From contig CAZHRF010000002.1 in the NCBI GenBank assembly GCA_964534625.1, positions 1-53,195 of the forward strand: a stretch of 53,195 bases of DNA, written 5' to 3'. Made by a program: the position numbers and the translations under genes. The notes below the pieces were generated by a model, which saw only the letters and a program-made list of their open reading frames with translations, did not search any database and had not been told where the DNA came from. This DNA comes from an uncultured archaeon. Its GTDB lineage: Archaea > Asgardarchaeota > Heimdallarchaeia > Heimdallarchaeales > Heimdallarchaeaceae. This document shows positions 20,506 through 29,937 of the stretch, piece after piece (positions within the stretch are counted from its first letter, which is position 1; every line of letters begins with the position of its first letter).

Positions 20506-20958
20506 CTAACTTTTTTTAATAATCTCTCTAAAAAAATCTGATGAAAATTCCTTGTGAGTTGTGCTAATTACACTCCATTTTCCTTTTCTTTCCAATTTTA
20601 TGACTTTAGCATCAAACAACTGATTTAAATGATGGGAGATAGTGGATTGACATAAACCCGTAATGTGTTCGATTTCACAGGGACAGGATATACCGTTCAT
20701 AATTAACTTTAACATTAATAATCTGTTTTTGTTTGCTAGTGATTTGAATAGTTTTAATAATGATTTGATTTCTTTCTTTTTTTTCCACTTTACAAACTCT
20801 TTTTCCACTTGTTTTAACTTTTCTAGGCGGTTCTTAGGTGAACTTGAAATTATTCCTTGTTCATGCAATTCTTTAATTTTTGTTTTTATTTCTTCGCTCA
20901 CTTTATTCACTAGATTTTTACCGCTATACTGATTCTTGTCCACCTCATTTATAAACAT
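20506..20958 (-). CDS. ArsR/SmtB-family metalloregulator
   Basis: FKSLANKNRL, CPCE (alpha3 CxC), QSTISHHL, GKW wing; divergent from the permease. Confidence 0.9.
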   Translation of the reverse strand: MFINEVDKNQYSGKNLVNKVSEEIKTKIKELHEQGIISSSPKNRLEKLKQVEKEFVKWKKKKEIKSLLKLFKSLANKNRLLMLKLIMNGISCPCEIEHITGLCQSTISHHLNQLFDAKVIKLERKGKWSVISTTHKEFSSDFFREIIKKS

Positions 20959-21010
20959 ATCTACATATCGTGAAATATCGATATGTTTATAAATCGAAGA
21001 AATTCGATAT
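20947..21010. promoter_or_regulatory. divergent promoter with palindromic TATA and two ArsR-type operator palindromes
   Basis: TTTATAAA at 20986-20993 is about 30 bp from both starts. Boxes ATATCG-N8-CGATAT (20965-20984) and AAATCG-N8-CGATAT (20991-21010). Perfect 15-bp inverted repeat at 20947-20961/20980-20994. Confidence 0.7.
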
Positions 21011-21022
21011 GAATGAATAAAA

Positions 21023-22417
21023 ATGGTTAGTCCAATACTAAAAAAAATTGGTGAAATACTTTTTGGAGGAGTGCTAGCTCTAGCTGACTATCTCTCATTC
21101 CATGTTTTGTTATGCTTAGTTCCTGCCTTTTTCATTGCAGGGGCAATGGTAGTATTTATTCCAAAGGATTTCATTATGAAATATGTTGGAGCGGATGCCA
21201 AAAAAATTGTTGCGTATCCCATGGCAGCTATTGGGGGTTTTCTTATAGCAGTGTGTTCATGTACGGTTCTCCCTCTATTCGTTGGAATAAAAAAGAAAGG
21301 AGCGGGTTTAGGTCCGGCTATAACGTTTCTTTTTGCGGCACCTGCTGTAAACATCTTAGCTATCACCTATACAGGTGTTCTTATTAGTATGAAACTTGCA
21401 GCAGCAAGAGCTGTTTTGGCACTTGTTTTTGCAATACTTATAGGCTATTTGATGGAATTGCTTTTCGCACCAAAAAGCAAAGATAAGAAACTTAAAAGCG
21501 AAACAGACGAAGAAAGGGAAAGGGAAGTTGAAACAAAACTTGGTGAAGCTGTTGAAGATGCGTATGGAGAAAAACCTGAAGTTGTAGCAGTTAAACAACC
21601 TAAAAAAACTAATAAAGAAAAACTAACATTGACTCTACAGATTTTTGCACCTCTTATGGGATTAGTATTAGCTATTTTCAGTAAAGAAATATTGCTGGCT
21701 ATTGGCGTAGGTACTCCTGTTATACTACAGACAAGTATTTGGGTGTTAGGCACAATTGCATTAGTTATAATTTCTTTTATAGACACAAATCGTGGGTTAA
21801 ACTTGTTTTTGTGGTTAGCTTATGTACTATTTACTGGTACATCTCAGATAAATTATTTCAATGCATCAATGTTCAATGGAACTGCTGATCTAAAAGCGTC
21901 AATTTTTAATATGGCAGGAAAAGCAGTTCTAACCCTCATAATTGTTATTGGAACGTGGTTTTATAGTAAAGAGAATTTTGAGAACGAAATTCTTAAAGAA
22001 TGGATGAAAGAAACATGGGCTTTCTTCAAACAGATCTTTCCATTGATAATAGTTGGTGTATTTGTAGCCGGGATGCTAGATGTCATAATCCCTGATAAAA
22101 TAATTGAAAACTCAGTAGGTAAAAATAGTGTTTTAGCCAATTTAATTGGTGTTTTATTTGGTGTATTCATGTATTTCCCAACGTTAATGGAAGTTCCTAT
22201 AGCTCAAATGTTTTTGAGTAAAGGTATGGCAGAAGGTGTTTTACTTGCCTATCTATTGGCTGATCCTGAATTATCTATTCAGAGTATATTAGTTACACGT
22301 AAATATATTGGCGATAAGCAAAACTTTGTTTATGTGTTACTTGTGATACTGTTTACGGTTATAGCAGGCTTATTATATGGTCTACTAATTGCAGGTGAGC
22401 CTATAAGCTTGTGGTAA
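21023..22417 (+). CDS. DUF318/ArsP-family permease
   Basis: CLVPAFFIAG, AVCSCTVLPLF, FLFAAPAVN, MYFPTLMEVP; multi-TM. Confidence 0.92.
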   Translation: MVSPILKKIGEILFGGVLALADYLSFHVLLCLVPAFFIAGAMVVFIPKDFIMKYVGADAKKIVAYPMAAIGGFLIAVCSCTVLPLFVGIKKKGAGLGPAITFLFAAPAVNILAITYTGVLISMKLAAARAVLALVFAILIGYLMELLFAPKSKDKKLKSETDEEREREVETKLGEAVEDAYGEKPEVVAVKQPKKTNKEKLTLTLQIFAPLMGLVLAIFSKEILLAIGVGTPVILQTSIWVLGTIALVIISFIDTNRGLNLFLWLAYVLFTGTSQINYFNASMFNGTADLKASIFNMAGKAVLTLIIVIGTWFYSKENFENEILKEWMKETWAFFKQIFPLIIVGVFVAGMLDVIIPDKIIENSVGKNSVLANLIGVLFGVFMYFPTLMEVPIAQMFLSKGMAEGVLLAYLLADPELSIQSILVTRKYIGDKQNFVYVLLVILFTVIAGLLYGLLIAGEPISLW

Positions 22418-22435
22418 CAATAAGGAGATGAAAAC

Positions 22436-22678
22436 ATGACAAAGAAAAAAATTAGTATATTAGGCACAGGATGTAAGAAATGCAAAAAACTGCTAGAGAT
22501 AGCTGAAAAGGCTGTTAAAGAGGCAGGTAAAGAAGCAGAATATGAAATAGAATACATCACAGAAATTGAAAAGTTTGCTGATTATGATGTATTTATTACT
22601 CCAGCATTGAAAATAGAGGATCAAACTATTGTAGAAGGGGGATTAATAACTTCCAGCAAACTCATCGAAAAGTTGTAA
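22436..22678 (+). CDS. small thioredoxin-like redox protein (MTH895/Thioredoxin_3 type)
   Basis: ILGTGCKKC, TPAL; SD AAGGAG; typical partner of DUF318. Confidence 0.9.
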   Translation: MTKKKISILGTGCKKCKKLLEIAEKAVKEAGKEAEYEIEYITEIEKFADYDVFITPALKIEDQTIVEGGLITSSKLIEKL

Positions 22679-22714
22679 AGTGTTCTCTTTTTTACTTTTT
22701 GCCTTTTTCTCTGT

Positions 22715-22890
22715 TTATAGTTTATAGCCAAATATATGGAGTCAATTCATTTTTTTGTATATTTTTCCCCAGCAATCATTACACAGCGGAACCCGCCTAG
22801 AACCACAAAAATTTGGATTGTTAATTGTTTTGACTCTCGCCAAGGAACTTGTTTGCTACAACCATTACACACAATAATTTTACTTTTCAT
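22715..22890 (-). pseudogene. frameshifted small Cys-rich zinc-finger gene
   Basis: ATG overlaps the DGC stop (ATGA). MKSKIIVCNGCSKQVPWRESKQ continues in another frame as NNPNFCGSRRVPLCNDCWGKIYKK. Confidence 0.5.
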
Positions 22891-23324
22891 TGTAATTTCT
22901 CCTTATTAACGATGCGTTCAATAACTATGTTTGCAGTTTTTTCAATTTCACTATCATTTAGATAATCAGAAATTTTTTCGCTACCACCTTTAAAGACTTC
23001 CTTGAATGATCTTTTCTTTATTCCAAGATCTTTTGTTAGAACAATAGATTCAGGATTTATTCCTTGCTTTTCAACTTCTTTAGTCGTACATTTCATCGCG
23101 CACCCGTCTATTGTTAACACTTTTTCAGCATTTTGAGTACTGTTAATAACCGACTTAACACCTTGGGATAGAGCCGTTAAAAAACCAATAGAGGCTTGGT
23201 TTAGCGTAACTTCTACTGCTCGAACGCCAGCATGCCCTGTTGTTATACCAGTATTTGAAAACCCACCAAAACAGGCATAAATTACTGTCGGATAGTCATT
23301 TGTATCATGTGTATTGTTATTCAT
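22887..23324 (-). CDS. DGC-domain putative zinc-binding protein
   Basis: YACFGGFSNTG, IDGCAMKC. Confidence 0.85.
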   Translation of the reverse strand: MNNNTHDTNDYPTVIYACFGGFSNTGITTGHAGVRAVEVTLNQASIGFLTALSQGVKSVINSTQNAEKVLTIDGCAMKCTTKEVEKQGINPESIVLTKDLGIKKRSFKEVFKGGSEKISDYLNDSEIEKTANIVIERIVNKEKLQ

Positions 23325-23368: not shown

Positions 23369-23454
23369 GTATTATATTCTCTTCCTATTTTGGAATTATT
23401 CATAAAAAATATTTTCTATTTCTTTAAACCGAATAAATCCCTAAAGAAAATAGT

Positions 23455-23563
23455 TAGTACTTCCGAATTAACGAAAATATTAAAGACTTTACTCATTTAG
23501 AACGCATCTTTGCCTATTTGATTACAGAGATTATAGCAATAAAGCACTATTTCGGAAGTACTA
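23455..23563. mobile_element. 109-bp MITE with terminal inverted repeats and 5-bp target-site duplication
   Basis: TAGTACTTCCGAATTA ... TATTTCGGAAGTACTA (15/16 match), flanked by ATAGT at 23450-23454 and 23564-23568. Confidence 0.8.
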
Positions 23564-23605
23564 ATAGTAAAGAAAAAAATATAAACTAGATAAAAATGTC
23601 AAAGC

Positions 23606-26485
23606 ATGAGTAACATGCCAAAAAACAAGTATTTAGAAGAGGATATGGCCAAAAAGAGAATACGGTGGCAATGTTTAGAGATAGAAGAAGTTTATGAAAA
23701 ATTATCAACAAGCGAAAAAGGACTAACAAAAAAAGAAGCAGAAAGACGACTGGAAGAATATGGCCCCAATAAAATAGAGTATGAAGAAAAATACAAAATA
23801 CTAAAAATGATTGGAGCTCAATTCAAAAACTTCTTATTGATATTATTGATTATAGCATTCATAATCAGTTTGGTTTTAGGAATTAAACACACCATAACAA
23901 GTGATGAGATATCCAAAGAATTGTACGAGGCTATAGTTATATTTGTGATTATTGTGCTAAATATAGTTATAGGTTTTGTTCAAGAATATAAAAGTGATCA
24001 CGCTTTAGAAACCATTAAACACTATTTTGAAAGTAAAGTTGTAGTTATAAGGGAAGGAAGAGAAAAGATTATTTCTTCATGGGAATTAGTGCCTGGTGAT
24101 ATTGTAAAAATTGAGACAGGAGATAACATACCTGCCGATTTGAGATTAATTGAAACTACAAGCCTTAAAATTGATGAAATACCGATAACAGGAGAATCTG
24201 CACCTGTTACCAAAGAAATAGTTACCATGAACAAAGAAGAATGTCAACTACCTGACCTCACAAATATTGCTTTTATGGGTAGTACAGTAGTTTATGGCAG
24301 AGGGACAGGTGTTGTTATATCTACTGGTAATGATAGTGAGATGGGTAAGATGACTGTTCTAACAAAAATAAAACCAGAAAAAACTTACCTACAAGAAACA
24401 ATCGACAAGTTTGCAAAAAGCATAGCTGTTTTTGTGCTTATTTTAGTCACTTTTACAATGATATATAGAGTGGTTTCATTGATAACAGTATATGAGAAGG
24501 AGTTTTTAGACGCATTTTTTGAAAGCCTAGAAATAGCTATAGTATTAGCAGTATCAGCTGTACCAGAAGGAATAGCCGTAACAATAGCTATATTGTTAAC
24601 TATAGGAGCAACAAGGATGGCAAAAAGGAATGCAATAATAACACGGTTACCAGCTGTAGAAACTCTAGGATCTGTGGATTATTTATGTACAGGAAAAACA
24701 GGAACATTGACAAAAGGGGAAATGACTGTAGAAGAAGTATGGTTATATGAAAAAAAGCATCTCAAAGTAAGCGGAACAGGGTATGATTTAAAAGGTGAAT
24801 TTTGTATAAATGGAGAAAAAATAGAACCTAGAAAATTTAAACACCTAGAATGGTTGTTGAAATGCGCATACTTGTGTAATAATGCAAGTTTGATAAAAAA
24901 TGGAAAAGAAATAAAGTTAAGAGGCGATCCAACTGAGATAGCATTAATTGTATTGGCTGAAAAAGCGGGTATAGCAAAAAACTATCAAGAAGAAGGAGTA
25001 CGTGAAATTGTCTTCGAAAGTAGAAGAAAAAGAATGACAAAAATATATAGAATTGACAATGAATACTATGCTTTTATGAAGGGTGCTCCTTCTACAGTAG
25101 TAAATAGATGTCATAGCATAATGCAAGATGGAAAAGAAATATTGATTACTAAGGAAATTCACGATGAAGTATTACAAAGAAAAGGCGAAATGTCAAAGAG
25201 AGCTTTAAGAGTACTTGCCATGGCTTATAGAAAAGTGCCAGAAGAAATGATATATGAGGAACCGGATAGAATAGAATCGGAAATGGTATTTGTGGGATTA
25301 ACAGGTATGATTGATCCACCCAAACCTGAAATTAGAGAATCAATAGAACAATGCAAAAAAGCGGGTATAAAGACGGTATTATTTTCAGGTGATCATAAAG
25401 AAACATGTATAGAAATAGCAAAAGAAGTGGGAATTCTTACAGAAGAATCTGATTTGATAGTTAATGGGGAAGAATTTAGTATATTAACAGATTATGAGTT
25501 AAAAGAAAAAATAGAAAGGATAAAAGTTTACAGTAGAGTGGATACCAAAGATAAATACCGGATAGTGAACACACTCCAAGAGATGGGACATGTAGTTGCA
25601 GTAGTGGGAAGGGGGGTGAATGATTCGCCAGCGTTAAAAAAAGCAGATATAGGAATAGCAATGGGAACAGGAACAGATCAAAGCATAGAAGCAGCAGATA
25701 TGATACTGAAAGATGATTCATTTAATACAATAGTTGAGGCAGTAGCAGAAGGGAGAACAATATTTCATAATATGAAAAAATTTGTCCATTATGCACTAAG
25801 TTCGAATATAGACGAAATATTTGAAGTGTTTATAATTTTGTCCCTATTTAATATGTTACCATTACTACCCTTACAGATATTATTTCTAAATTTATTAACA
25901 GATTCGTTACCTGCATTATCTTTAGCTAGTGAACCACATGATCCCTCTTTAATGGAAGGACCTCCTGCTAATAGGAAACATTTTTTGAGAGAAATATATG
26001 GGTTTTCTTTGCTTACAGGATGTATCGCCTTAATTGCCTCACTAGGAGATTTTCTGATAGGTTATCTGCTAATAGGGGAAGGAAGGATAGAAGCAAGAAT
26101 GACTGCGTTAAATTATACAATACCTGCAGAGTATACAATGCATGATTATGTACTAGCCTATGCTCAATTAATATCTTTTGTTGCTACAATAGTTTATGAA
26201 TTGATCTTTATTTTCTTAATCCGATGTAATGATGAGACACCATTTATAGAATCAAAACCATTGAGAAATATTTGGCTTGTTAGATCAGTATCTTTATCTT
26301 TTATTCTATTGTTAATAGTTGTATATGTTCCACCGTTACAAGCGATTTTTACTAGTTTTCCACCTGGGTTCTATTATATCTTAGGGGCACTAGATTGGTT
26401 GCTGATATTATCTCTAACTTTAGGTGTGAATATAATCGTAGAGTTATTAAGATATATTCTTCGGGATAAAAAGTGGATGAAATAG
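23606..26485 (+). CDS. P-type IIA (Ca2+-type) ATPase homolog with degenerate catalytic motifs
   Basis: YGPN, LVPGD, TGES, VPEG, GDPTE, KGAP, DPP, SSN.DE, LNLLTD. But CTGKTGT replaces DKTGT and GRGVND replaces GDGVND. Confidence 0.92.
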   Translation: MSNMPKNKYLEEDMAKKRIRWQCLEIEEVYEKLSTSEKGLTKKEAERRLEEYGPNKIEYEEKYKILKMIGAQFKNFLLILLIIAFIISLVLGIKHTITSDEISKELYEAIVIFVIIVLNIVIGFVQEYKSDHALETIKHYFESKVVVIREGREKIISSWELVPGDIVKIETGDNIPADLRLIETTSLKIDEIPITGESAPVTKEIVTMNKEECQLPDLTNIAFMGSTVVYGRGTGVVISTGNDSEMGKMTVLTKIKPEKTYLQETIDKFAKSIAVFVLILVTFTMIYRVVSLITVYEKEFLDAFFESLEIAIVLAVSAVPEGIAVTIAILLTIGATRMAKRNAIITRLPAVETLGSVDYLCTGKTGTLTKGEMTVEEVWLYEKKHLKVSGTGYDLKGEFCINGEKIEPRKFKHLEWLLKCAYLCNNASLIKNGKEIKLRGDPTEIALIVLAEKAGIAKNYQEEGVREIVFESRRKRMTKIYRIDNEYYAFMKGAPSTVVNRCHSIMQDGKEILITKEIHDEVLQRKGEMSKRALRVLAMAYRKVPEEMIYEEPDRIESEMVFVGLTGMIDPPKPEIRESIEQCKKAGIKTVLFSGDHKETCIEIAKEVGILTEESDLIVNGEEFSILTDYELKEKIERIKVYSRVDTKDKYRIVNTLQEMGHVVAVVGRGVNDSPALKKADIGIAMGTGTDQSIEAADMILKDDSFNTIVEAVAEGRTIFHNMKKFVHYALSSNIDEIFEVFIILSLFNMLPLLPLQILFLNLLTDSLPALSLASEPHDPSLMEGPPANRKHFLREIYGFSLLTGCIALIASLGDFLIGYLLIGEGRIEARMTALNYTIPAEYTMHDYVLAYAQLISFVATIVYELIFIFLIRCNDETPFIESKPLRNIWLVRSVSLSFILLLIVVYVPPLQAIFTSFPPGFYYILGALDWLLILSLTLGVNIIVELLRYILRDKKWMK

Positions 26486-26531: not shown

Positions 26532-27410
26532 TTATATTTTATCCCAAATTCGTATTATTTCATATATAAGATGAACAACTAGGTTTAGAACCAAATTATT
26601 TTCTTGAGAGACTCTTGTCTCTACGATATCAACATAGACAGCATTAGGCAGTATGAGTTCCAATACTTCTAATAGGTCATGAGGGGAAAGACCAAATGGT
26701 TCGGGTACGCTCAACGTGGGAACATAACATTGGTCCAAAATATCTAAATCAATACTTAAACAGACATTATTGTATCGGTCCATAAATGAAAGAATTTTGT
26801 TTTTTACCTGTTTTGTATTCTTTATAATATTGCTTGTTGGAATAAAATTGATTTTATCTTCTTTGATTATATCGAATTCTTCTTTTGATTGAGAGTATGA
26901 GTGTCCTCCGATGAGCATTAATTGTTCGCTTGTTATTTTTTCGTCCTTCAAAAGATTATGAAATATAGTGGCATGAGACCTTTTTACCCCTGGGGGGTAT
27001 TCTTTTGCCAAATCGGCGTGCGCATCTAACCAAATAAGGCCTATATTTTTTAGCTCAGCTTTACTAAGGGAGAAATACGTACTGTAATGGTCACCACCTA
27101 TCATGATGATTTTCGAGTTGGTTTTTTTTGCTAATTGCCATATCTTGGAAATCCTTTTATTTTCTCCTTTCTTCGTTATGTCTATGTCACCAAAATCATA
27201 ACACATCGTTTTAGTTTCGTGGATATTGTAGTTAACAGAGATCCCACTATTATTCACCGAAAATCTTCGTATTAAACTAGGGGATTTAGCACATCCTTTT
27301 GGGGTTTGTTTTTCACCTTCATATGGTATTCCATATAAAATAATACTTTGTTCTTTGATTTCCTTCATTTCTTCTCTTGAATCAAAAAAGCCTACAAATG
27401 GTTCACACAC
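26532..27410 (-). CDS. arginase/agmatinase (ureohydrolase) family protein
   Basis: GGDH, DAHAD, SHA, SIDLDILD Mn-binding motifs. Confidence 0.88.
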   Translation of the reverse strand: MCEPFVGFFDSREEMKEIKEQSIILYGIPYEGEKQTPKGCAKSPSLIRRFSVNNSGISVNYNIHETKTMCYDFGDIDITKKGENKRISKIWQLAKKTNSKIIMIGGDHYSTYFSLSKAELKNIGLIWLDAHADLAKEYPPGVKRSHATIFHNLLKDEKITSEQLMLIGGHSYSQSKEEFDIIKEDKINFIPTSNIIKNTKQVKNKILSFMDRYNNVCLSIDLDILDQCYVPTLSVPEPFGLSPHDLLEVLELILPNAVYVDIVETRVSQENNLVLNLVVHLIYEIIRIWDKI

Positions 27411-27444: not shown

Positions 27445-29937
27445 CTACTCTCTTTTTTTATTAAGTAATGTAGCAGGTGATGTAACAAATTCTTGTTCTT
27501 CTACTTGTTCTGTTTCAGTCTCTTGTTCTTCTTGATCTTTTATATCTTGTATTGATAAATCAACTAACAAACTACTATCGTCTATTGAAATAATGCGAGG
27601 TAATTCAATTTTAGCGGGATTAAAGTCTTTTAACAATTCTTCTATTTCTTTCATTTGGGATATTTTGCCTATTAAATTCATGAAAGTTAAAACATTTTCT
27701 GGATAAAGAGCTGCTTGGGGGATCAAACTGAGTTTTTTCCCTATGGATATTGCTAGGTTATCTAAAAAGTATTTATCCTCTTTCAAAACCTTTGCTGGTT
27801 CATCAGAAATAAAAGAAGCTATCTTGAGCAAGTTTATCTTTGTCCATATACTCACTACTGGTTCAGGCTCTAAATTTAATGTATGAACAACACCAATATC
27901 TTCTCCCTTAACATTTTCCACTATCTTTCCTTCAATGTCAAAAACTTCAATTAAATCGAATGAAGGAGAACCATAGCCAACTTTAATATCATCACCGACT
28001 ATTTTTAATGTTCCAATGCTATAAAGTGCATATTTGGCATGTTCAACGTCATGGGGTAGTATACCTGCATTTTTTTGTACTAATATCTGTTTAAGAAATT
28101 CTGGATCTTCAACTTTTGTTTCCATAATTTTGTATTCCCTAGATAGTTTGAACAGTAGATGCCATTTTTTTTCTCTAAAACTCAGATTGAAATGTTTATG
28201 ACTATCCTCTTGATCAACATATAATAGATCATACACCATTGCAAAAAATCTATCTGGAAGAACCTCTCTTTCCACTACTAAGAAATATCCTTCTTTAGGG
28301 TGATATAAAATCGAATGGGCCTCTCCAATCTTTTTACCAAAAATATCTTCAACTTCAATATGTTCATTTTCTTCTATGAACACTCTAAATTCATGGCTCG
28401 CCTTTGGATCAAAGAAAGGAAGAAGTAATCCTAGTTCTCTAATATTCTGAGTTTTAATAACTATATTTCGACTTCTTTCAATAATATCTTCGATAGGAAC
28501 AAATAAGAACTGTATTGGCTGTCTTAAGAGATCTTCTAATTCGGATGATAAATTGGCTCCAATACTTTTACAATAGTCAATGATATTATCTGGGATTAAA
28601 AAGGCGTGAGAAATATGCGGTAGAACTCGAGGAAACTCATTTAATAAAGAAGTTCTTTTATCTTCTTCACTCATTGCCCTAGTGCTTTGTATGATTGGTG
28701 CAATAACATGATCATAAGTCCTTCTAAGTAAAGAAGAAGAGATTTCTTGCTGTTTTCTAATAATGAATCCATAATCATCTCCTGATTTTCCTGGACCAAC
28801 CATAAAACCAATGAGTTCATTATCAGTATTTATCACACTTCTTCCATTATAATCCCATATTCGCTTGAGTTCTTTCATTAAGGTATAGTCAATGTTTGTC
28901 GAAAAAGAACTGGCAATGACTTCAAGGTTAGGTAGAAAAGCTATTGATCTAACTACTTCGCAGTATCTTCTAATCCTTGCTTCAGTATCATCAGAAAGGT
29001 CTGCAAAATATCTTGATGATATGTCTTGAAATCGTAGATGCTCTCCATATATCTCATCAATAGCTTCCAAGTCAATAATATAGTCGTTGATATCTTCTTC
29101 TAATAATTCTTCAAAGATTTTGAATTGACGTATTCTCCTTTCCAGTCCCTCTAATTGGTTTTGTACTAGTGATTTTTGATTTTCTTCTTTAAAACGATTC
29201 AATACCTCTATTTTATCATTTACAGCTATTTTCCATTTTTTTGTATCTTCGATTGCTTTTTTCAATAAAGGACGATGTCTTAATACTCTGTTATTTATCT
29301 CATAAATTATTCCTTTTATTTCTTCACGTTCTATCTCTCCCCTTCTAAGTCTATTCAAATTCTCGCTTAATTCGTTATTGAATAGAAGAAAGTTGTTGTG
29401 TGTTTTTTTATAAATATGATCAACCGTAATATTGGAAAGTAAATCTGAGAGTGCATAATATTTATCAAAAATAATTTTTTCCTTTTTTTCTAGTTTCTTT
29501 TTTTCTTCTAAATAAGCAGAATTGGTTTTTTTATTATCAGTAAACTCTTGGTCAATCTGTAATTCTTGTTGAAGAAGATTTGAAGCTGAAAGAATCGCTA
29601 AATTCATGACATATCTAATCTTCAACTCTTTCATTGCGATTTCAGGAATAGTTTTTATAGCCATATTTGGTAAACTTATGGTTGGTTCAATTATTTGGGG
29701 TGATGTGGCTTTTCCTTGTTCCAAATCAACTTCCATCTGCTCTAAATTATCTGTTCCAATCAGAATTCTATTTGCTTCTTTATTTAGAACGCCTTCCATT
29801 GGAAGTTCTTTTAGCATATTCTGGTATTTTGTTTTTAATATCTGATAGGTACGTCTATCTATTGAACCCTTTATATACCGGATATCAAGATCACGAATTA
29901 ATCTTTGTATCCTTTGTCTTTTCCCAACTTTGGACAT
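27445..29937 (-). CDS. SHOCT-like/coiled-coil protein with three PRC-barrel-like repeats
   Basis: N-terminal LxxRYIKGSIDRRTY..LK (SHOCT-like), long heptad region, then GRSVINTDNELIG, IEVEDIFGKKIG, GKIVENVKGEDIG, each followed later by a closing strand motif (FVPIEDI...NIVI; YSIGTL...DIKV; IELPRI...SLLV). Confidence 0.65.
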   Translation of the reverse strand: MSKVGKRQRIQRLIRDLDIRYIKGSIDRRTYQILKTKYQNMLKELPMEGVLNKEANRILIGTDNLEQMEVDLEQGKATSPQIIEPTISLPNMAIKTIPEIAMKELKIRYVMNLAILSASNLLQQELQIDQEFTDNKKTNSAYLEEKKKLEKKEKIIFDKYYALSDLLSNITVDHIYKKTHNNFLLFNNELSENLNRLRRGEIEREEIKGIIYEINNRVLRHRPLLKKAIEDTKKWKIAVNDKIEVLNRFKEENQKSLVQNQLEGLERRIRQFKIFEELLEEDINDYIIDLEAIDEIYGEHLRFQDISSRYFADLSDDTEARIRRYCEVVRSIAFLPNLEVIASSFSTNIDYTLMKELKRIWDYNGRSVINTDNELIGFMVGPGKSGDDYGFIIRKQQEISSSLLRRTYDHVIAPIIQSTRAMSEEDKRTSLLNEFPRVLPHISHAFLIPDNIIDYCKSIGANLSSELEDLLRQPIQFLFVPIEDIIERSRNIVIKTQNIRELGLLLPFFDPKASHEFRVFIEENEHIEVEDIFGKKIGEAHSILYHPKEGYFLVVEREVLPDRFFAMVYDLLYVDQEDSHKHFNLSFREKKWHLLFKLSREYKIMETKVEDPEFLKQILVQKNAGILPHDVEHAKYALYSIGTLKIVGDDIKVGYGSPSFDLIEVFDIEGKIVENVKGEDIGVVHTLNLEPEPVVSIWTKINLLKIASFISDEPAKVLKEDKYFLDNLAISIGKKLSLIPQAALYPENVLTFMNLIGKISQMKEIEELLKDFNPAKIELPRIISIDDSSLLVDLSIQDIKDQEEQETETEQVEEQEFVTSPATLLNKKRE

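Follow-up and report, generated by a model that had tools for sequence, protein, structure and literature searches.

The locus and its surroundings

The 53,195-nt stretch of contig CAZHRF010000002.1 (assembly GCA_964534625.1), hereafter the window, contains an intact gene for a P2A-type ATPase homologue that reads GKTGT at the phosphorylation motif (the GKTGT gene). Its features are given below by window coordinates, in comparison with SERCA, with a syntenic ortholog from a second organism, and with an active paralog on contig C79 of the same genome, both described later.

23454..23564, no strand: 111-bp MITE with terminal inverted repeats TTAGTACTTCCGAA and a TAG duplication, directly 5' of the promoter-like box and missing from the ortholog
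23567..23605, plus: A-rich box resembling BRE/TATA (TATAAAC at 23580, 26 nt upstream of the ATG), almost unchanged in the ortholog; putative promoter
23606..26485, plus: full-length ORF of the P2A-type ATPase homologue without the phospho-acceptor Asp; intact frame, 959 aa
23969..24000, plus: 32-nt tract in M2, exact match to the active paralog (C79 3395-3426)
24188..24199, plus: TGES of the A domain, retained (aa 195-198)
24323..24403, plus: A-M3 linker and M3 tip (aa 240-266) with T244S, A250T, P261Y and L266I, common to both GKTGT copies
24560..24601, plus: VPEG of M4 (E321, SERCA E309, retained), then the altered stalk (L323I, A325V, A332T)
24692..24694, plus: G363 (GGA) in place of the DKTGT phospho-acceptor Asp (SERCA D351)
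24722..25312, plus: N domain (aa 373-569), with DPTE, F470, K475, KGAP and R535 retained; 0 of 37 conserved columns altered on this lineage alone
25385..25393, plus: S594 (TCA), SGD instead of TGD, a conservative change
25604..25612, plus: V667-G668-R669, the altered TGD of the hinge TGDGVND (SERCA T701, D703); G669 in the ortholog
25664..25666, plus: G687, after which the next residue (A-domain pivot) is missing in both GKTGT copies
25799..25903, plus: SSNIDE of M5 (N734, E737) and NLLTD of M6 (N762, T765, D766), equivalent to SERCA N768, E771, N796, T799 and D800
25872..25905, plus: 34-nt tract in M6, exact match to the active paralog (C79 1493-1526)
26198..26200, plus: E865 in M8, equivalent to SERCA E908 by motif register; Glu in all alignment rows shown

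The GKTGT gene lies outside any operon, with a DGC-domain gene divergent upstream and an arginase-family gene convergent downstream. The upstream region (20506-23324) encodes an ArsR regulator, an ArsP-type permease, a small thioredoxin and the DGC-domain protein, and resembles a metal/arsenic-resistance cluster. Downstream, the arginase/agmatinase-family gene (26532-27410, minus strand) is 75% identical in amino acids between the two organisms, with a dS of 0.91 as against 0.37-0.48 for its neighbours, and it is possible that it was replaced by recombination. The next gene (27445-29937, minus strand) encodes an 830-aa protein that Pfam, NCBIfam and Atlas leave unassigned; the second organism has it too, in the same gene order (dN/dS 0.12). 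A search for a small regulin-like ORF beside either of the two ATPase genes gave nothing convincing, and an Rfam search gave no match.

The promoter-like box is conserved between the orthologs, whereas the flank is not. The MITE that abuts it occurs some 40 times in the genome, 34 copies being nearly full length, and several other copies also carry a 3-bp duplication; no long element sharing its ends was found.

Codon shuffles yielded one exact run such as those shared with the paralog in about 1 in 1000 cases, and two in none of 3000. Short gene conversion between the GKTGT gene and the paralog is the simplest reading of the two tracts, and conversion from C79 may help to hold M2 and M6 alike. 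The silent changes between the orthologs nevertheless show that selection acts on M6 as well.

The ortholog, the host and the active paralog

The altered codons, which the earlier note wished to see confirmed in reads, are borne out by a read-derived Logan unitig (L077, SRR7048228) that is identical to window positions 23971-25901 and spans all three; the same contig was recovered in five samples. L077 was located by prediction from the flanking Logan unitigs of the SRR70482xx runs (100% identity), which end at two 31-mers with further copies elsewhere in the genome. As the MAG may itself derive from these runs, L077 represents an independent assembly, not an independent organism. An independent organism is provided by SRR31660269, which yielded a syntenic ortholog (P0002; 89% amino acid and 89% nucleotide identity) that shares the arginase-family and 830-aa neighbours. 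The earlier note had proposed a search for orthologs with both GKTGT and GRGVND; P0002 has GKTGT, together with SGD, but its hinge reads GGGVND. The MAG origin makes an artefact of sequencing or assembly conceivable, but this is extremely improbable, and error was ruled out as the cause by the identical read-derived unitig in five samples and the separate ortholog with the same changes.

All inferences on the GKTGT lineage rest on these two sequences. A third member was not found in near-length and short-fragment protein searches, among 50% representatives, or in metagenome and genome scans with a few patterns; neither these searches nor those that follow are proof of absence. The pattern GKTGT[LI]T had 11 other matches in 400 Asgard genomes, none of them in a P-type ATPase. 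Second P-type copies in genomes of the family all read DKTGT, and the matches in viral contigs were unrelated. One cluster representative as listed (P0122) proved to be a transposase fragment and was disregarded.

The named closest homologues of the GKTGT protein belong to Ca. Heimdallarchaeaceae/Heimdallarchaeota, and the host is a Heimdallarchaeia-like Asgard MAG. Its 3.37-Mb genome (G000) encodes six other P2-type ATPases, each with DKTGT. One of these, the C79 paralog (P0003, C79:853-3780), is 62% identical to the GKTGT protein and fully canonical; its contig is ordinary for this genome in tetranucleotide make-up, and its unitig occurs in the same run as that of the GKTGT gene, likewise in five samples. 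In the phylogenetic tree, the GKTGT pair nests among P2A pumps as sister to the C79 paralog within the Heimdall clade (support 100/100), and an AU test rejects a tree that holds the active family members together (p = 7e-65). The stem of the pair has 0.50 changes per site versus 0.20 for C79, i.e., 2.5 times faster. The gene is present in 1 of the 47 genomes of the order; in the other genomes, protein identity did not exceed 52% for any match, and DKTGT stood in all homologues examined. Because of this, and of its position as sister to C79, the GKTGT copy is a duplicate confined, so far, to one genus-level lineage. A C79 ortholog was not found for the P0002 organism, and therefore the co-occurrence of the two copies is shown for one species only. 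In addition, the C79 paralog and the nearest clade (L005/L011) read PEGLA for PEGLP, equivalent to SERCA P312A, and the P312A-type change is therefore older than the GKTGT copy.

Altered and retained residues

The phosphorylatable Asp of DKTGT is absent from both orthologs, and the Mg2+-binding Asp of GDGxND is absent as well (GRGVND and GGGVND), although Asp occupies positions 363 and 669 in all 215 other aligned pumps. The intact 959-aa ORF and the codons GGA (G363), TCA (S594) and AGG (R669, at 25610) are as first described, and so are the retained TGES, VPEG (aa 319), DPTE (441), KGAP (492), DPP (570), SSNIDE (732) and NLLTD (762). SGD is present as the earlier note had it, but T594S is conservative and found once among active pumps, 214 of the 215 having Thr. 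The idea that R669 fills the Mg/phosphate site as a mimic was rejected, since the ortholog has Gly there; by comparison of the two sequences, it is the acid that is lost at 669, and Arg itself is not conserved. T667V, P261Y and the one-residue deletion after G687 are changes beyond those noted before. In the alignment, the residue after G687 is present in 26 of 26 closest and 91 of 93 other relatives, and this same pivot indel separates P2A-I from P2A-II pumps (PMC10654040, section 5); working pumps without the residue exist.

All P2 domains were detected by Pfam, and the AlphaFold model (pLDDT 83.5) has complete A, N and P domains and a 10-TM (M1-M10) pump fold, for which the top Foldseek matches are SERCA structures (TM 0.77-0.83). 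The model is closest to E1-like structures, which we did not count as evidence, as its input alignment consisted of active pumps. The protein falls below the NCBIfam cut-offs of both the SERCA type (538 of 703) and the PMR1 type (580 of 798).

To locate the changes, we took the 196 alignment columns in which 95% or more of 118 active pumps agree, and counted those altered in both GKTGT copies but not in C79. Nineteen of the 196 are altered on this lineage alone, and at 18 of these the new residue is identical in both orthologs. Eleven lie in the P domain (I360L, D363G, M592L, T594S, A601C, A603E, P647T, T667V, D669R/G, A674S, V692Q), and the A-M3 linker and M4 stalk account for all others except L194I, just before TGES. 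The linker, stalk and P domain thus hold 18 of 19 changes versus a background of 34% in 97 further active pumps (p = 4e-8), and the P domain alone 11 versus 22% (p = 9e-4). By contrast, none of the 63 conserved columns of the N domain and M5-M10 is altered (0 of 19 changes versus 41%, p = 4e-5), and those of M1-M2 and M3-M4N are likewise free of lineage-specific change. These p-values are optimistic, as the domain grouping was set after the changes were seen and the 97 control pumps are related. As judged from the alignment, the loss is selective, hitting catalytic and coupling parts and sparing nucleotide and ion sites.

The M4 PEG and the two-site ligand set of SERCA-type P2A pumps are both present, and each of the seven Ca2+ side-chain ligands of SERCA has its counterpart (E321, N734, E737, N762, T765, D766 and E865). 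We take E865 to be SERCA E908 from the register of the motif in SERCA, the pairwise alignment being shifted at that position. The retained residues also include K364, T365, F470, K475, K492, R535, D596, R644, K650, N672 and D673. The two orthologs do not differ by a single amino acid at the seven ion ligands, at 16 nucleotide-site residues or in TGES, although retention of the seven ligands alone is not significant on a stem with about 10% of conserved columns altered. From the ligands, the bound ion would be Ca2+.

The dN/dS of the two orthologs is 0.166 (0.126-0.216) by NG86, with neighbouring genes at 0.155 and 0.122. A codon ML fit gave 0.098 at a dS of 0.57 (2dL = 328 against 1), and six active pump pairs of the family (dS 0.40-0.85) gave 0.063-0.099; the gene is thus constrained about as strongly as functioning pumps are, with a value near the top of their range. 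Values are low in every domain (0-0.24), and there is neither a stop nor a frameshift across this divergence. M5-M6 (aa 726-785) has 10 silent and no amino acid differences, and aa 315-375 has 12 silent and one. The relaxed selection that would have spoken against the earlier note is not seen, and the only close ortholog shares the loss. Overall, the 959-aa protein is, by its sequence, a catalytically dead paralog of an Asgard SERCA-like pump, real and under purifying selection, with the loss of essential catalytic residues expected of a pseudoenzyme, albeit from two sequences.

A putative pseudo-pump and its alternatives

The earlier note had proposed that concerted loss of catalytic acids with retained ion and ATP sites reflects selection for a non-pumping role, and the selective pattern of loss supports this. 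Whether the protein is a pseudo-pump that would bind Ca2+ and ATP without cycling, and act as a membrane Ca2+/ATP sensor or regulator, we regard as evenly balanced, and this is the reading that we favour over all others. On this reading, a P2A Ca2+-pump gene was duplicated in a single Heimdallarchaeia-like Asgard lineage of genus level; the C79 copy remained a pump, while the other lost the D351 and D703 equivalents, remodelled parts that drive the E1P-E2P stroke, and then returned to the purifying selection that it now shows. By established P-type chemistry, aspartyl phosphate could not form in this copy, and therefore it would not pump, nor would uphill transport be expected. It should nonetheless be able to take up one or two cations from the cytoplasm, and ATP in its N domain, and might switch without turnover between an ion-free state and an E1-ion-ATP state. 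SERCA mutants at D351 behave in this way; D351A has an increased affinity for ATP, with which it forms a stable Ca2-E1-ATP complex. A partner, most plausibly the pumping system of the paralog, could conceivably read this switch. The changed M3 tip (P261Y) belongs to the SERCA hub (Thr247, Pro248, Leu249, Glu340) that sets Ca2+ binding and release kinetics (PMC7733806). TGES speaks against a sensor, having no catalytic use where a phosphoenzyme is lacking, and its retention may reflect folding.

Other roles can be considered for the retained sites. A passive ion pathway, i.e., an uncoupled Ca2+ leak or Ca2+/H+ exchanger with alternating access but no phosphorylation, appears rather unlikely. 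Every ion ligand is retained and M5-M6 is invariant, as would suit such a pathway, but the outer gate of SERCA opens in E2P, the conserved columns of M1-M2, M3-M4N and M5-M10 carry no lineage-specific change, and a conserved ATP site would be unneeded unless ATP gated the leak. The M3-tip (P261Y) and M4-stalk changes, which touch the Ca2+ binding/release hub (PMC7733806), would favour it. It is also unlikely that the part played by the protein is purely structural, as chaperone, scaffold or decoy subunit of the active paralog or of some other membrane complex, with ion and ATP residues that serve folding, not sensing. Such a role would fit the low dN/dS in each domain, the retention of TGES without use, and the degenerate P-type modules fused to intact pumps in CtpH/CtpI (PMC13460109), but it sits poorly with the selectivity of the loss and with the separate locations of the gene and its paralog (C2 versus C79), and in a protein that bound no ion, one would expect erosion of the buried acids of M4-M8.

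Slow decay of a functionless duplicate, in which selection removes only misfolding variants, could account for the narrow range (1 of 47 genomes), the drift at residue 669 (G to R), a dN/dS at the upper limit seen among active pumps and a MITE beside the promoter. We consider it improbable in view of the open frame over a dS of 0.57 with a dN/dS of 0.10, the excess of silent changes at aa 315-375 and the conserved promoter-like box in an unconserved flank; a useless gene would also be lost more easily than kept in such form. Still less probable is an ATPase or pump with other chemistry, either non-covalent hydrolysis or a nearby Thr, Ser or Cys acceptor. K364, T365, D596, R644, K650, N672, D673 and TGES are all retained, and TMEM94/ERMA moves Mg2+ without GDGVND or TGES (PMC13322241). 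However, ERMA has and needs its Asp (D427N is dead), whereas nucleophile and Mg2+ ligand are both gone here, and the sole new conserved P-domain acid among the conserved-column changes is A603E.

Among known systems, the whole fold is that of SERCA-type P2A Ca2+-ATPases (SERCA1a/2; PDB 6lle, 4h1w, 1iwo) and Listeria LMCA1 (9euq, 6zhf; phmmer E = 5e-152), with TGES, the N-domain ATP site and the side-chain ligands of both SERCA Ca2+ sites in common; relative to SERCA, the D351 and D703 equivalents are missing and T701V, P248Y and the M4-stalk changes are added. The Heimdallarchaeia P2A pumps, of which C79 is the direct sister (62% identity, two shared nucleotide tracts), have the same ion-site motifs but all retain DKTGT, TGD and GDG[VI]ND. 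The likeness to engineered SERCA D351A/N and Na,K-ATPase D369N is the loss of the phospho-acceptor with ion and nucleotide sites intact, although those are laboratory single mutants, and the GKTGT gene is natural and selected, with many added changes. In SERCA as in Na,K- and H,K-ATPase, no phosphoenzyme forms once the acceptor Asp is replaced by Asn, and the protein is trapped in an E1-like state (PMC13322241). TMEM94/ERMA, a P-type fold with a disputed mechanism, shares the broken GDGVND loop but is otherwise the opposite, with the Asp (in DKQGI) kept and neither TGES nor an open nucleotide pocket. CtpH/CtpI are single fused chains and heavily degenerate, whereas the GKTGT gene is separate, full-length and barely eroded. 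As its place in the tree implies, this P2A gene became a dead P-type protein independently.

DKTGT has been taken as universal in P-type ATPases, and sequences without it discarded, in reviews and gene inventories (PMC10763278, PMC10654040). We found no report of a natural full-length P2A protein without the Asp, nor of a P-type ATPase pseudoenzyme, in a literature of which our coverage was incomplete. The GKTGT gene thus presents a P-type fold retained without its catalytic aspartates. A tentative and somewhat unlikely extension of the sensor reading is that a SERCA-like pump became a receptor given over to Ca2+ and ATP, a P-type protein naturally locked in E1 that regulates the pumping paralog or another effector. 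If true, this would be the first P-type “transceptor” without transport, found in those Asgard archaea that are nearest to eukaryotes, and it would show pseudo-pump evolution at an early stage, with the active twin still present. Because the GKTGT protein is 62% identical to the intact paralog and keeps its ion and ATP sites, the pair permits a direct test of the role of an unphosphorylatable P-type ATPase.

Two further observations concern other P-type ATPases of the group. Three P2-type ATPases of the host genome (C27:33934-36834, C46:18074-20983 and C90:2935-5805) have intact catalytic motifs and a GDGVNDALA hinge, together with PISIP, PIMIP or PIAIP in M4 and altered M5-M6 ligands. In another genome (G001), a second P2A pump is represented by its C-terminal half only (L055, C36:7178-8665; 493 aa), which lies close to a full-length copy and is possibly a split or truncated duplicate.
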